From the NCBI GenBank assembly GCA_017505745.1, contig JAFVOP010000031.1, forward strand, positions 50,712 to 114,711: DNA of 64,000 nt, written 5' to 3'. Below are positions 310 through 56,070 of this stretch, one piece after another. The notes beneath the pieces were generated by a model, which worked only from the letters and a program-made list of their open reading frames with translations, was not told the origin of the DNA and did no database searches. Both the position numbers and the translations under genes were made by a program. The first letter of the stretch is position 1; every line of letters starts with the position of its first letter. Source of the stretch: Clostridia bacterium. Lineage in GTDB: Bacteria; Bacillota; Clostridia; Oscillospirales; CAG-272.

Positions 310-1254
310 GTGGTCAAAAACGCGGCCTATTACCGCGCCAAGGCAAGAGAGGTGCTCAAGCCTTGCTATTGGTATGCCGTTCTCGCGGCGCTGATCGCAT
401 CGTTTTTGGGCGGTGTTACATCCGGAGTCCCGGTGAATGTCAATTTCAATTTTGGCTCCGGCAATTTCTCGGAAACCAAAGTGCAGCTCGATTCGTTCCT
501 GCACAAGTTTGAGGAGAAGGGCTTTGCGGCCTTTGAAGAGGTGATGCCCTTCCTGATCATTTTTATCAGCATCTTTGCCGTAGCCATGCTGTTTGCGCTT
601 TTGCTGTATCTCTTCGTTGGAGCACCGGTGGCACTTGGGTATCAAAGATACAATTTGCACGTTGTTGACGGAGAAGGAAAAAAGCTGGACGTCCTGTTCC
701 GCTATTTTAAGGTGGGTTACCTGAAATCGGTGGGCGCGCGCCTGCTTTACGATCTGATCCTCGCCGCGTGCGCGTTGCCGCTGGCGGCCGTGAGCGGACT
801 TCTGCTCTGGGGCAACCGCGGCGTGATCATGAGTTTGTTCCGCGGAGACGCAACGCCTTGGGCGTGGGCCTCGCTGGCGTTGATCTCTCTCGTGATCTTC
901 GCCGTATCGCTTCTGACGGCCCTGCTGCAGACCTGGCTGAAATACCGCTATGCGTTTTGCTTTATGATTCTTGCGGAATATCCCGAGCTTTCGGTTTTGG
1001 ATGCCTTCCGCAACTCGGCGTCCCTGATGCGCGGCAAAAAATGGAGATTTTTCTGCCTGCAATTGAGCTTTTTGGGGTGGATCTTGCTTGCGACATTCTG
1101 CACCTGCGGAATCGGTGTGATCTTTCTCACTCCCTATAGGCAAGCGGCAAACGCGGCATTTTATGACGAGATTACCAACCGCACCGCCGCCAAGGAGACC
1201 GAATTCCCCAGCCTCAATCCCGACGATTACAGCCCCGACAACGCGCGGTGGTAA
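310..1254 (+). CDS. DUF975-family integral membrane protein
   Basis: N-terminus YYRAKAREVLKPCYWYAVLAALIASFLGG, several hydrophobic helices, and C-terminal FLTPYRQAANAAFYDEI are typical of DUF975. The GTG start at 310 has no Shine-Dalgarno sequence (see finding on ATG 260). Confidence 0.65.
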   Translation: MVKNAAYYRAKAREVLKPCYWYAVLAALIASFLGGVTSGVPVNVNFNFGSGNFSETKVQLDSFLHKFEEKGFAAFEEVMPFLIIFISIFAVAMLFALLLYLFVGAPVALGYQRYNLHVVDGEGKKLDVLFRYFKVGYLKSVGARLLYDLILAACALPLAAVSGLLLWGNRGVIMSLFRGDATPWAWASLALISLVIFAVSLLTALLQTWLKYRYAFCFMILAEYPELSVLDAFRNSASLMRGKKWRFFCLQLSFLGWILLATFCTCGIGVIFLTPYRQAANAAFYDEITNRTAAKETEFPSLNPDDYSPDNARW

Positions 1255-6967: not shown

Positions 6968-7160
6968 AAAATGGCGGGGAGAGAAACGTTCCTACAACGC
7001 CCCCGCGAGATCCGACCGCCAAGGGCGGTCGCCCTTCGGGCTTCGACCGGTGAGCCGTGAGTGAAACGAACGCGAGCCTTCTCAGAGATGACGCGGAGTG
7101 TTTATGCTGTGCTTCGCCGCGCTCCGCTCAGGATGACACGAGAAGTGTTCGTGCCAACCT

Positions 7161-7303
7161 CAGTTGCCGCTACGGCAATTTGAGCGTTGCTCAAATTGAG
7201 AGCCAAAGCGAATCGCGCTCTAAACCAACCAATTAAGAAAAAAATGTGTGGAAAGTTCTTGAAGGGGGACCGGGGGAAACTTCTTACAAGAAGTTTCCCC
7301 CGG
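7161..7303 (+). repeat. Copy A of a ~145-bp structured intergenic element (core palindromes plus terminal hairpin)
   Basis: Core CAGTTGCCGCTACGGCAATTTGAGCGTTGCTCAAATTGAGAGCCAAAGCGAATCGCGC. Terminal hairpin at 7270-7303. Paralogous copies at 23256-23402 and 54834-54977. Confidence 0.85.
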
Positions 7304-7316
7304 AAAATATTCCGCT

Positions 7317-20691: not shown

Positions 20692-20700
20692 CAACGAAAT

Positions 20701-20870
20701 TCGCCTTTGGCGAGTGATATATGGCTTTGCCATGTGAAATAGCTTCGCTGTGAAATATTTGCTACGCAAATGTGATGGGCGAATTTCATTTCACATTGCG
20801 ACGAAGGAGCAATATTTCACAATTTACGAAGTAAATTATTTCACATTCGGCGCCAGCCGAATATTTCACT
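20701..20870. repeat. Dyad-symmetric array: 4x GTGA(A/T)AT on the + strand, then 4x ATTTCAC, interleaved with mini-hairpins
   Basis: Octamers start at 20714, 20734, 20750, 20772. Complements end at 20794, 20820, 20844, 20869. Hairpins include TCGCC-ttt-GGCGA, GGC-ttt-GCC, AGC-ttc-GCT, TGC-tac-GCA, ATTTA-cgaag-TAAAT, TCGG-cgccag-CCGA. Confidence 0.8.
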
Positions 20871-20978
20871 TGAAAAGCTATCTAAAGTATGATATAATAA
20901 TAGTAGAAAGGCGGTGTTACTATAACTGATTCAAAGCCCCGCGACCTATCCACAGACTTTGCGGTTAAAGTTATAAAA

Positions 20979-23129: not shown

Positions 23130-23255
23130 ATCCTCACCTCCTTGTAAATTCGGTTGAAATCGATCTCACGGATATAGACGGATTTGATGGACAAAAGGTT
23201 CAAAAAATGAAAAAACTCATTGGAGCATCGCGGCGATACCGTTTCGAGCGAACAT

Positions 23256-23402
23256 CAGTTGCCGCTACGGCAATTTGAGCGTTGCTCAAATTGAGAAGCG
23301 AAGCGAAACGCGCACAAAAGCGAATGCTTTCGTTATACATAAATGCGTAAAAAAGTTCTTGGGAGGGGTGTGGGGAGACCTTCTTTCCAAGAAGGTCTCC
23401 CC
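23256..23402 (+). repeat. Copy B of the ~145-bp structured intergenic element
   Basis: Core CAGTTGCCGCTACGGCAATTTGAGCGTTGCTCAAATTGAGAAGCGAAGCGAAACGCGC. Terminal hairpin GGGGAGACCTTCTT/AAGAAGGTCTCCCC at 23372-23402. Confidence 0.85.
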
Positions 23403-52688: not shown

Positions 52689-53594
52689 ATGAAGTCCAAA
52701 AGACAACTGGCCTCCAACCGACTTTTTCATTTTTGTCTTGTTTTGGGAGTGTTTTTTGGATGGGGCTCGGTCAGCTTTTTTATAGAAGACAACGTAGCAT
52801 GGGGATGGGGATTTGGAGTCATCGCACTCCTTCTTACTGTGATCCCTGCCATATTTACTCCCTACTGTTACGTATTTGACCGTGACGGAATTTCCTTGCG
52901 CTACGTATTTCTTCCCGTGGAACGGTATCTGTGGAAGGACATATACGCAATTGAGGTTGAAGATACGAGTACAAGCTCAAGATCGCTCCTTTTTGAATTA
53001 TTATTCGCCTATGTTTTTGCTATCAAAGGTCAAAACGTAGGAAAAAAGAGATTTTATATGAATGGGCACGTTCGCAAGACGCATCGAACGAAAAAATTGT
53101 TTGAAGCCTATTGGGACGGAACGGTTACAGGGTATTTGTTTGAGGACACCAAGGCATGGATCCGTAAGCGCAAAGCGAAAAAACAAAAGGAAATCAAGCA
53201 ACAGTTCACCGATGAAATCGTTCCGATGGAGCGGGAGATCCGGGCCGATGTGAGGAGCTGGTTAACCCCGTTGGTGGAGCAGGCGAAGCAGTACGGTCTT
53301 TCGGTCAAGGCAACGTATGTTTCTGTCACGAAGGATGGGGAAGAGCACTGTTCCAGGCCGCATGAGGGATACACGTACCGGATGATTGCGGAAATCGCGT
53401 ATGCGAATGAAACCGAGGAAGCGCGCACCGTTGCTGTAAGCGTGGATCTGCTCTACGTCCGCCTGGGAAAAACCGCCTATCGCGGTGTAAAAAACGAACA
53501 CGCGCAGGAGGAGCTGCAATTCAGTCTTTCGGACGTTATAAACGAAATTCATAAAAACGGAATTGAGACGTATTGCAACAATGAGGCGAAATAG
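52689..53594 (+). CDS. Hypothetical membrane protein (two N-terminal TM helices, bPH-like segment, basic linker)
   Basis: ATG with AAGGAA SD. LFHFCLVLGVFFGWGSVSFF and WGFGVIALLLTVIPAIF helices. No catalytic motif recognised. Confidence 0.5.
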   Translation: MKSKRQLASNRLFHFCLVLGVFFGWGSVSFFIEDNVAWGWGFGVIALLLTVIPAIFTPYCYVFDRDGISLRYVFLPVERYLWKDIYAIEVEDTSTSSRSLLFELLFAYVFAIKGQNVGKKRFYMNGHVRKTHRTKKLFEAYWDGTVTGYLFEDTKAWIRKRKAKKQKEIKQQFTDEIVPMEREIRADVRSWLTPLVEQAKQYGLSVKATYVSVTKDGEEHCSRPHEGYTYRMIAEIAYANETEEARTVAVSVDLLYVRLGKTAYRGVKNEHAQEELQFSLSDVINEIHKNGIETYCNNEAK

Positions 53595-53710
53595 AAGAAA
53601 AAAGCGGAGCGTAAAAGGCAGGTTCTCATAAGGAAGTTTGATTTCTCCTTGTAGAGACCGGCATCCTCGACGGTCCGAGACATATTTTGCTATGCAGGAA
53701 ACAAATAATT

Positions 53711-53744
53711 AACCCCCAACAGATTTTACAAATCTGTTGGGGTT
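53711..53744. terminator. Bidirectional terminator hairpin
   Basis: AACCCCCAACAGAT-tttaca-ATCTGTTGGGGTT followed by TTAT, between convergent genes. Confidence 0.8.
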
Positions 53745-53747
53745 TTA

Positions 53748-54251
53748 TCATATTCCGTAACGTATTGCCTTCCATTCGTTCCAAAAGGCAATATAACCGT
53801 TTCGATCAAATTCATCTTCGGGTAATTTTTTATCTGCAGCGGCATTATAAAATGCTTCTACTTGGTCTGCAAAAGCAAAGACGGTTGTTTTATATTCATC
53901 AAATAATATTTCCGTTCTTTCTCCTGCTTCTGTAACTAAAACAACATTGCCGTTTTCGTGCAAAACCGACCAATCAACTCCGTTAGGGCAACCGCAAATA
54001 TCAACTTTTGAAAGTTCTTCATTTGCTATCATAAAAAAGCCACAGCAAGGAAGCATTTGATTACTCTCATATATTTTATGATCTTCCTTCAAGGATTTCA
54101 GCAAATACAATGCGGTAGAACTGACTGTTGCGTCATCATATTCCAAAACTTCATGTCCTATGATCGCTTTTGCATTTCCGTGAAGACACAGATCCTCGAT
54201 GGGATCTACCCCTTCCATCCAATGAAGATTGGATACACTGATAGAAAACAT
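53748..54251 (-). CDS. Hypothetical cytoplasmic protein (167 aa) in a low-GC pocket
   Basis: ATG 54251 with GGAGG SD 6 nt upstream. No motif recognised. Confidence 0.5.
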   Translation of the reverse strand: MFSISVSNLHWMEGVDPIEDLCLHGNAKAIIGHEVLEYDDATVSSTALYLLKSLKEDHKIYESNQMLPCCGFFMIANEELSKVDICGCPNGVDWSVLHENGNVVLVTEAGERTEILFDEYKTTVFAFADQVEAFYNAAADKKLPEDEFDRNGYIAFWNEWKAIRYGI

Positions 54252-54371
54252 ATGTAACCTCCGTTATCGCCAGTTTCGCCTTTGTATTACAAAGGCATAG
54301 GGCAAAGCCCATACCCCTACAATACCGAATATATTATATCATAGATTAGCAGAGAAAGCAAGAGTTATATT

Positions 54372-54540
54372 CCGACTCCGTCGGAGTAATATTATACGGC
54401 TCCGCCGTGTAGTGATATTGTTCGGCTTCGCCTCACAGTGATATTTTATTCGCCCCTTTAACTTGCGAAGCAAATATCACTCGGTGCAAGCCGAATACCA
54501 CTGCGTACACAATGCAATTGTGCGCAATAGAACTCACCCA
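54372..54540. repeat. Second dyad-symmetric octamer/mini-hairpin array (same family as 20701-20870)
   Basis: GTAATATT (54386), GTGATATT (54412) and GTGATATT (54438) at exact 26-bp phasing, then AATATCAC (ends 54480) and AATACCAC (ends 54501). Hairpins CCGAC-tcc-GTCGG, ACGGC-tcc-GCCGT, GGC-ttc-GCC, TTGC-gaa-GCAA, TCGG-tgcaag-CCGA. Confidence 0.8.
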
Positions 54541-54598
54541 AGGCGAATAAAACTGCCCAACCTCCTTATGAGAAGTTGGGCAAGCCCCGCTTTTTTAC

Positions 54599-55089
54599 AA
54601 TGTCATTCAGTTAAGGAATCATGAAAGGCTCTCCCACCGGGAGAGCTGGCGCCGTAGGGCGACTGAGAGGGGATTTTATTCCTATAAACTTCGTTAGCGT
54701 AAAACAGGATGCTTTCCATATCAAAATTAACTTCATAGAGCATTTAGTGGTCGAAGGCTTCTCTACGCGAAGCCGCCCTAAATGCTAGCGGGAGCATCGC
54801 GGACATCGCGGCCATATTGTTTAGAGCAAACATCATTTGCCGCTATGTGCAATTTGAGCGTTGCTCAAATTGAGAACCGAAGCGAAACGCGCACGAAAGC
54901 AGCCAATTTCGCAATAAAAATGTGTGTAAAGTTCTTGAAAGGGGTCTGGGGGAAACTTCTTACAAGAAGTTTCCTCCAGAAAACATTACGTTAAGGAAGC
55001 CTTTGCTTCCAAAGCCCTCTCCGTCACGCTGTCGCGTGCCACCTCCCCCAAAGTGGGAGGCTTCGTTTTTGTTCACTGAATGACGTTGC
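54599..55089 (+). mobile_element. MITE-like non-coding insertion (~490 bp) with terminal inverted repeats and a 10-bp direct-repeat flank
   Basis: Left end AATGTCATTCAGTTAA (54599-54614). Right end TTCACTGAATGACGTT (55072-55087), matching 14/16 as an inverted repeat. Exact GCTTTTTTAC at 54589-54598 and 55090-55099. No ORF inside. Confidence 0.6.
54834..54977 (+). repeat. Copy C of the ~145-bp structured intergenic element (inside the MITE-like insertion)
   Basis: Core CATTTGCCGCTATGTGCAATTTGAGCGTTGCTCAAATTGAGAACCGAAGCGAAACGCGC. Terminal hairpin at 54948-54977. Confidence 0.85.
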
Positions 55090-55206
55090 GCTTTTTTACC
55101 GCCCGCAAATAAAAAACGCCTGCGCTCTTGACATTTCTCCCCGATGTGTGATATGATTATGGAAGGGAACGGTTGCAACCGGCAAAGCAAAGGAGAGGAT
55201 GGGACG

Positions 55207-56070
55207 ATGCTGACAAACGAATCGGTAACGGCTTGGATCACCGACCGCATGAGCCGCTATGAATATAACAATCTGAAGGAGCTGGAGGGCTTTGCCTTTG
55301 ATGCGCCGCTGGTGGGCTTCAGCCGCGGAGACGATCCGCTCTACGCCTTTTACAAGGAGCATATCGATCCGCACTTTTATCGGCTTCCGCAGGAGTGGCT
55401 CGAAGCGGTGTTGGGCGGGAGCTATGACCCGTCGGGGATCAGCGTGATCAGTTGGGTGCTTCCGCAGACCGTGGATACGAAGGAAAAAAGCCGCAAGTGT
55501 GTGGATTGTCCGCCGCTGGAATGGCAGATGTCCCGCGTGCACGGAGAGGAATGCAACCGCGCCTTGGCGGAGGCGTTGGTGGCGCATTTGACCGCGCAGG
55601 GGATCCCCTCGGTGGCACCCATGCTCTCCGAGCAGTTTTCCTGGGGCGAGAGCGAGGTTCACGGAAAGATCTCCAATTGGTCCGAGCGGCATACGGCGTA
55701 TATCTCGGGACTGGGTACCTTTGGGCTTTGCGACGGCCTGATCTCCGAAAAGGGCAAGGCCGCACGCTACGGCTCGGTGATCGTCTACGCGCCGCTGACG
55801 GCTACCGTGCGTAAGTATTCGACCTACAACGAATACTGCATGGCAAAAAACGGCTGCACCGCCTGCATTCGTCGATGCCCCGCAGGAGCCATTACAAAGG
55901 ACGGGCACGACAAAGCCAAGTGTGTTGCTTACCATCGGGACGCCATCAAGTCGATCTGCCACGAGCGGTACGGCTATGACGGCTATTCGGTTTGCGGACT
56001 CTGCCAAACGGGTGTGCCGTGTGAGAGCGGGATCCCGACATGGGAGCCGAGGGAACAGACCGCGGAATGA
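55207..56070 (+). CDS. 4Fe-4S dicluster protein (epoxyqueuosine-reductase / reductive-dehalogenase-like)
   Basis: ATG 55207 with AAGGAGAG SD. Cys clusters CTACIRRCPAGAI and CGLCQTGVPC. Confidence 0.5.
   Translation: MLTNESVTAWITDRMSRYEYNNLKELEGFAFDAPLVGFSRGDDPLYAFYKEHIDPHFYRLPQEWLEAVLGGSYDPSGISVISWVLPQTVDTKEKSRKCVDCPPLEWQMSRVHGEECNRALAEALVAHLTAQGIPSVAPMLSEQFSWGESEVHGKISNWSERHTAYISGLGTFGLCDGLISEKGKAARYGSVIVYAPLTATVRKYSTYNEYCMAKNGCTACIRRCPAGAITKDGHDKAKCVAYHRDAIKSICHERYGYDGYSVCGLCQTGVPCESGIPTWEPREQTAE

Follow-up and report, generated by a model that had tools for sequence, protein, structure and literature searches.

Besides IS4 and its subgroup, the described systems closest to the element studied here include the IS231-derived MITEs and mobile insertion cassettes (MIC231) of the Bacillus cereus group. 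These are non-autonomous IS4-family derivatives with IS-type inverted repeats and duplications of ~10-12 bp; they are moved in trans and can carry passenger DNA. The REP, BIME, and REPIN repeats of proteobacteria are a second point of comparison. They are RAYT-linked and produce no target duplication, and small insertion elements can land in their loops. Within the IS4 family, the IS4 subgroup is defined by the end consensus -AATR--------WTW- and direct repeats of 10-13 bp (Table 1, PMC2266710). Conservation of the first nucleotide is relaxed in this subgroup, and the IS231 subgroup has CAT ends (PMC2266710).

Here we dissected a 491-bp insert in a 64-kb stretch of DNA (64,000 nucleotides, called the window below) from an uncultured gut Clostridia lineage. 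The insert is a real non-coding mobile element, consisting of an outer IS4-type MITE and a nested inner element. Its limits and termini are as follows.

54598-55088, plus strand: composite non-autonomous element of 491 bp, its ends fixed against the copies in L022, L024, and L025.
54588-54597, no strand: left copy of the target-site duplication, CGCTTTTTTA, which is the T-tract of the host terminator (from sequence).
55089-55098, no strand: right copy of the target-site duplication, CGCTTTTTTA (from sequence).
54598-54617, plus strand: left terminal inverted repeat CAATGTCATTCAGTTAAGGA, identical at 16 of 20 positions to the E. coli IS4 IRL.
55069-55088, minus strand: right terminal inverted repeat, reverse complement CAACGTCATTCAGTGAACAA, placed by comparison of copies.

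In the window sequence, the left junction reads ...CCCCGCTTTTTTAC|AATGTCATTCAGTTAA and the right junction reads TTCACTGAATGACGTT-G-CGCTTTTTTAC. The flanking direct repeat is exact, with a length of 11 bp when read as CGCTTTTTTAC (54588-98 and 55089-99) and of 10 bp when the shared C/G is assigned to the element (CGCTTTTTTA, 54588-97 and 55089-98). The exact 10-bp target duplication that an earlier note on this DNA had proposed is thus confirmed, at 11 bp with the ambiguous C. The 10-mer GCTTTTTTAC occurs at the two junctions only within the window, with 0.19 occurrences expected. The terminal inverted repeat, given in the same note as 14/16, is present in that form and extends to 15/17 (CAATGTCATTCAGTTAA / CAACGTCATTCAGTGAA). 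Its 16-mer pattern is found without mismatch at the two ends only in the 64-kb window, where 0.17 matches would be expected with up to 2 mismatches. The left junction also forms a sequence weakly resembling a promoter at 54594-54622 (TTTACA-17-AATCAT, 9/12), which reads into the element and is probably insignificant. Three ORFs overlap the insert (55, 70, and 96 aa). A Pfam search with them gave no match, and their database relatives are only spurious ORFs running across other repeat copies, in agreement with the earlier view that the insert is non-coding.

The termini tie the outer element to IS4. We read the IS4 ends from E. coli K-12 (NC_000913), where the IRL is TAATGCCGATCAGTTAAGGA, the IRR is TAATGCCAGTCAGTTAAGCA, and the flanking duplication is 11 bp. 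The MITE left end CAATGTCATTCAGTTAAGGA matches the IRL at 16 of 20 positions and the IRR likewise at 16 of 20, for which the binomial p is ~4e-7 (at least 16/20; 3.8e-6 for at least 15/20). Against the IS4-subgroup consensus, the left end agrees at all 7 specified positions and the right end at 5 of 7 in the window and 6 of 7 in the other copies. The duplication of 10 or 11 bp is inside the 10-13-bp range of the subgroup. The ends of the family are of the CAATGTCATTCAGTTAAGG type, and the C at the first position of the MITE, where IS4 has a T, fits because the first nucleotide is relaxed in the subgroup. The IS231 (CAT...), ISH8, IS10, and IS50 end types were also considered; they do not fit the MITE termini. 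No IS4-family transposase was found by tblastn in the window or in any fetched locus, and the IS4-type partner is a putative one. A limited search of viral contigs and plasmids gave no autonomous element with the MITE ends: a left-end scan of viral contigs and a blastn search of plasmids with the short form of the element both returned no match, and tblastn of IS4 InsG against plasmids gave no Firmicutes partner among the matches listed. From the sequence of the ends, we conclude that the outer insert is probably a non-autonomous IS4-family MITE, and the same ends suggest which transposase family moves it and by what mechanism.

The left arm, translated in four frames and searched against a protein collection, returned three spurious ORFs that read across other MITE copies. 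The family looks small, with its translation present in three protein clusters of 5.8 billion. Copies delimited by these termini lie at four other metagenome loci, L022/L023, L024, and L025, which are unrelated to the window locus and supply the further copies with matching ends whose search the earlier note had recommended. A short form of ~165 bp, with the arms joined directly (GATTTTATTTCC|AAAGCCCTCTCC), is present in L022/L023 and L024, and L025 carries a long form of ~393 bp. With the L024 short form as reference, arm identity is ~93-98% in the window, L022/L023, and L025 copies. The inverted repeats of the window are conserved in the four other copies, and every copy ends CAATGTC...GACATTG, with one L022 end starting with A. 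In L025, the flanks CAGCGATCGG / CACCGATCGG form a 10-bp duplication matched at 9 of 10 positions, and removing the element leaves a terminator hairpin, AAAAAGCCA-loop-TGGCTTTTT. The duplication is clear at only two of the four loci (the window and L025); L022 matches at 5 of 10 and L024 shows none. L022 and L024 share a homologous right flank and abut a common repeat, X, which indicates that they are rearranged and not independent. Judging from these flanks, their duplications are probably degraded, as in older or rearranged copies.

Repeat X (..GGGCGCACACTGTGCGCCCCTACGGGTTGGAGTGAACATTGCGCA..) abuts the MITE ends in L022 (116-530), L025 (300-641), and L024 (1317-1400), and in L025 it lies between the full MITE copy and a 49-bp duplicate of the left end. 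A tRNA gene in L024 is followed by two extra copies of its 3' end (723-1150), the pattern of elements that integrate into tRNA genes, and the MITE interrupts a hairpin after the last of these copies.

Taken together, the family has inverted repeats, a small size (165-491 bp), no transposase ORF, and copies at unrelated loci, as MITEs do. It also has a target duplication of fixed length, matched at 10/10 in the window and at 9/10 in L025. The proposal of a MITE-type insertion with a target-site duplication is therefore supported by the copies with the same termini elsewhere and by the L025 duplication.

The QueG-like gene downstream of the insert occurs at 100% identity in only two other assemblies, L001 (Logan) and L005 (ENA), both of the same strain. 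Their contigs start inside the insert, at 55055 and 54946, and such breaks are what a repeat does in short-read assembly; the insert thereby explains the assembly breaks of the source genome at this site. These breaks are also what would be expected if the insert were an assembly artefact or a chimeric join at a repeat. However, the right junction is identical to that of the window in both independent assemblies, which rules out a mis-join there, the insert is colinear with the L025 long form, and a mis-join would not produce precise inverted repeats and a duplication. We regard an artefact as having a negligible probability. All contigs of the window's species break at neighboring repeats and none spans the site without the element; the left flank of the insertion site is itself a multi-copy cassette.

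The insertion point lies in a terminator, which is split by that cassette.

53598-53607, plus strand: 5' half of the host terminator of gene 52689-53594, AAAAAAGCGG, pairing with CCGCTTTTTT at 54587-54596.
53611-54583, no strand: mobile cassette of ~1 kb, separate from the MITE, that interrupts the terminator loop; its terminal hairpin is at 54553-54583.

The earlier note had placed the MITE in a terminator T-tract, and the T-tract is indeed that of the terminator of gene 52689-53594. Its account of how removing the insert restores this terminator, from a CCCAAC...GTTGGG hairpin (54553-54583), does not stand. That hairpin is the end of the cassette, the T-run begins 7 nt past its stem, and its canonical T-tail is on the minus strand only. 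The T-tract pairs instead with AAAAAAGCGG: AAAAAAGCGG and CCGCTTTTTT, on either side of the cassette, pair perfectly, which identifies the T-tract as the 3' half of the gene 52689-53594 terminator. When both the cassette and the MITE are removed, the stop codon of gene 52689-53594 is directly followed by a neat bidirectional terminator; the reconstructed empty site reads ...GGGCAAGCCCCGCTTTTTTACCGCCCGCAAATAAAA... Reconstructed empty sites of the MITE fold as terminators.

The cassette looks like a mobile insertion cassette. It carries a gene for a 167-aa protein (53748-54251, minus strand) without a Pfam match, and the identical protein is present in at least 75 blocks of the collection in many gene contexts. 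The cassette DNA is ~97% identical in L008, L009, and L014 and 92% identical in L015. Its ends are inverted repeats (TTCTCATAAGGAAGTT), with ~55-nt repeats in the L010 and L017 versions. The Gut-1 motif (RF01706) occurs in the window as inverted pairs at 20692-20871 and 54362-54555. The first pair consists of two matches above the gathering score, after tRNA-Thr/tRNA-Tyr, and the second of two weak matches inside the cassette. Among the cassette versions, those of the window, L008, and L015 have this second pair and those of L010, L012, and L017 lack it, and for this reason it behaves like an inserted palindromic repeat and not like a fixed RNA gene.

On the other side of the insert, gene 55207-56070 encodes a QueG-like 4Fe-4S protein (weak Fer4_16 match). 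Its promoter, TTGACA-18-TATGAT with an upstream TG (55128-55157), is intact, and the MITE right arm supplies a hairpin and T-run facing it. In the nearest other species (L006/L007, QueG-like protein 82% identical), spoVT adjoins the QueG-like gene, and this locus has neither the 301-aa gene nor the cassette nor the MITE. The arrangement in the related species indicates that the 52.6-55.1-kb stretch is lineage-specific.

The position of the insert, directly upstream of the QueG-like promoter and gene, would also suit a structured non-coding RNA locus, either a small RNA or a cis-regulatory leader of the QueG-like gene, with flanking repeats that arose by chance or slippage. Such a locus would further account for the very strong fold predicted for the composite, one long branched hairpin (z = -10.5), and for compensatory changes in the inner hairpins. 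The short form is predicted to fold into a single long imperfect hairpin (-77.6 kcal/mol, z = -7.9), a point in favor of the MITE. Palindromic DNA, however, scores strong folds whatever its function. The element lies upstream of the QueG-like promoter and not in the leader, its copies have unrelated surroundings and point either way with respect to neighboring genes, and the related species lacks the whole region. A search of 54598-55088 against Rfam gave chance-level matches only at E <= 5, that is, no match at any threshold. An RNA locus is highly improbable on this evidence.

Each arm of the outer MITE contains one ~50-nt module with two hairpins.

54627-54672, plus strand: left-arm module, GGCTCTCCC-acc-GGGAGAGC and GGCGCC-gta-GGGCG, then CTGAGAGGGG (from homology and sequence).
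55011-55073, plus strand: right-arm module, CCCTCTCC, CACGC-tgt-GCGTG, and CCTCCC-ccaaagt-GGGAGG, then CTTCGTTTTTGTT (from homology and sequence).

In the right arm, CCCTCTCC and the two hairpins span 55011-55060, and the module is terminator-like on the plus strand. All of the GC hairpins listed in the earlier note are present in the sequence. Their description as a chain needs correcting for the arms, where they make up a pair of ~50-nt modules that are very abundant in gut Clostridia. A right-arm 24-mer scanned against metagenomes matched at least 120 contigs, the named records being mostly human-gut assemblies. The repeat on these contigs is a ~140-nt palindrome with the same two modules as the MITE arms in the opposite relative orientation; the left-arm module is homologous to its right half and the right-arm module to its left half. 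It reads ..CCCTCTCCGTCA-hairpin-CCACCTCCCCCAAAGTGGGAGGCTTTGGCA...TGCCAAGGGCTCTCCCTTTGGGAGAGCTG-hairpin-CTGAGAGGG.. (L026-L145, more than 120 contigs) and adjoins gene ends. One stem of the repeat covaries, with 9-10 of 24 sequences changed on both sides, and no Rfam family matched it. The module pair also occurs in the MITE orientation, without IS4 ends, in L012 and L017. From these arrangements, the simplest reading would be a REP-like module that can be paired in either inverted arrangement, with one such pair enclosed by IS4-type ends. A derivation of the MITE as an inside-out gut repeat, through a circle or dimer junction, was considered and dropped, since the either-orientation reading is simpler and is seen in L012 and L017.

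In L012 (~1550-1715) and L017 (~310-470, minus strand), the module doublet separates the promoter of the gene for the 167-aa protein from the start of that gene. L010 has a plain hairpin at this position, which suggests insertion into a hairpin.

The abundance of the modules raises the question of whether the insert as a whole belongs with the extragenic palindrome clusters of the REP/BIME or REPIN kind, which a RAYT (Y1, IS200/IS605-like) enzyme or recombination would have spread, the flanking repeat being incidental. As with REPs in BIMEs, the ~50-nt, two-hairpin modules are hugely repeated in gut Clostridia in both relative orientations, one of their stems covaries, and the MITE is located at a terminator. 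We nevertheless consider this very unlikely. REP/REPIN and IS200/IS605 types have no target duplication, and here the duplication is exact over 10/11 bp and matched at 9/10 in L025. A REP or REPIN unit would end at the hairpin module, but the MITE copies are bounded by IS4-like termini, and none of the more than 120 module-bearing human-gut contigs listed has such termini or a further MITE copy. IS200/IS605 elements have asymmetric subterminal hairpins and no inverted repeats or duplication, as opposed to the symmetric repeats and 10-bp duplication found here. An IS4-type MITE with REP-like modules in its arms is what these termini and duplications point to.

The long forms differ from the short form by an inner element, which was located through the short-form junction and a locus in which it stands alone.

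54683-55010, plus strand: nested inner palindromic element of ~328 bp, absent from the L022/L024 short forms and alone in L147.
54688-54704, plus strand: left inverted repeat of the inner element, ACTTCGTTAGCGTAAAA (from alignment).
54985-55000, minus strand: right inverted repeat of the inner element, ATTACGTTAAGGAAGC (from alignment).
54738-54786, plus strand: inner hairpin GAGCATTTAG...CTAAATGCT, with compensatory stem changes among the window, L147, and L025.
54822-54990, plus strand: copy C of a structured repeat, with two short hairpins (54837-54869) and a 17-bp hairpin.

The inner element occupies the apex of the outer hairpin, between TCC/TCC flanks (54680-82 and 55008-10), with its boundary ambiguous by up to 4 nt, and has its own imperfect inverted repeats of ~17 bp, AAAGCTTCRTTAGCGTAAAA and ATTACGTTAAGGAAGCTT. 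In L147 it is found without the MITE arms, in a hairpin loop of 3 nt (GGGGGAACTTCTT-TCA-AGAAGTTTTCCCC) and with TCA/TCA flanks. The L147 and window sequences are 82% identical over 362 columns, in an alignment that extends beyond the inner element by ~15 nt of flank. The L025 copy has TCC/TCC flanks plus one extra C, and the 3-bp duplication is thus known from three copies, one with a 1-nt irregularity. The window and L025 have identical nesting junctions, ATTTTATT(T)CC| and |AAAGCCCTCTCC, and different genomic flanks. Common nesting junctions at unrelated sites, each with its own 10-bp duplication, indicate that the composite transposed as a unit.

Copy C is embedded in the insert as the earlier note had it, and its 17-bp hairpin (TCTGGGGGAAACTTCTT/AAGAAGTTTCCTCCAGA) is at 54945-54980. 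The suggestion that this structured element travels as MITE cargo proved partly right: the window and L025 junctions place it inside the MITE, but it is not inert, since L147 identifies it as the core of a second element. Two further copies in the window, A (7153-7314) and B (23226-23394), had been suggested to be perhaps older or differently mobilized. They align to the central and right parts of the inner element only and are thus truncated inner elements. The 3' hairpin of the inner element shows three compensatory pairs in copy B, and the absence of the two-hairpin segment 54837-54869 from L025 indicates that the interior of the inner element is modular. Rfam searches of L024, L025, and L147 gave no match. 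A 21-mer from the core of the structured element, searched against GTDB representatives that do not include the source organism, had three chance-like matches in unrelated genera. Six-frame concatenated peptides searched against the protein collection (at least 8000 candidates) returned a near-empty result that missed the known positive P0123 and is no evidence of absence.

The inner element lies in hairpin apical loops in both of its independent contexts. The MITE targets are a terminator T-tract in the window and a terminator loop in L025, and all three non-autonomous elements described here (the 1-kb cassette, the IS4-type MITE, and the inner element) are located in terminator-type hairpins. 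A possible, if rather doubtful, extension joins two ideas: that the inner element belongs to an undescribed class targeting the apical loops of DNA hairpins, and that the ~50-nt module is a REP-like unit with a function, for example in protein binding or as the structure of an RNA end, that an IS4-type MITE has taken up.

For the insert as a whole, we think it probable that it is a composite non-autonomous element, in which an outer IS4-type MITE and an unrelated inner element have moved together. The outer part would be a palindromic MITE of ~165 bp with 17-20-bp IS4-type ends, moved in trans by an IS4-family DDE transposase in a cut-and-paste manner; cuts in the two target strands, staggered by roughly one turn of the helix, would account for the 10-bp duplication. 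The apical loop of the outer hairpin would have received the inner element, an unrelated palindrome of ~328 bp, with a 3-bp duplication. The composite would then have transposed as a unit into the T-tract of the bidirectional terminator after gene 52689-53594. This would have placed it just upstream of the QueG-like promoter, where its right end brings a terminator-like hairpin and T-run that may act on transcription; the order of the events and any such effect are what we infer from the arrangement of the parts.

MITEs are well known, and the main value of this locus is descriptive: it is a clean case, taken apart here, of one non-autonomous element nested in another in a gut lineage of uncultured Clostridia, and the terminal sequences connect it with a family of transposases. 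What recurs three times in the window as the structured element is thereby shown to be mobile DNA instead of an RNA gene, a reason for care with RNA-motif calls in genomes of this kind. Similar care may be due with the Gut-1 motif, given its inverted pairs and its variability among cassette versions. In addition, the hairpin module connects this rare MITE with a repeat that lacks an Rfam family and is found in more than 120 human-gut contigs. The targeting of hairpins and terminators, the abundant uncurated module, and the inverted Gut-1 pairs are of wider interest than the insertion itself.

Compared with IS4, the MITE has similar 20-nt ends (16/20) and a similar duplication of about one helical turn (10-11 bp, and 11 bp for IS4 in K-12). 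Unlike IS4, it has no transposase gene, measures 491 bp (165 bp in the short form) and not ~1.4 kb, resides in an uncultured Clostridia lineage, and has an interior of hairpin repeat modules. With REP, BIME, and REPIN repeats it shares short intergenic hairpin modules in alternating orientation, often at terminators, and it differs from them in its IS4-type inverted repeats and duplication. Nested or composite bacterial MITEs, as surveyed in PMC11602168, are likewise small, AT/GC-structured, palindromic, intergenic, and multicopy; the family of the window was not found in the part of that survey compared here. The IS231 MITEs and MIC231 resemble the element in being non-autonomous and of the IS4 family, with inverted repeats, a ~10-bp duplication, and passenger DNA. 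Their ends are CAT, whereas those described here are CAATG, and the passenger here is a non-coding mobile element and not a gene. Nesting in an apical loop and transposition of the resulting composite are documented here for the MITE family of the window only. In other respects, the window element is a good example of an ordinary element type, an IS4-family-derived MITE with a nested second MITE.
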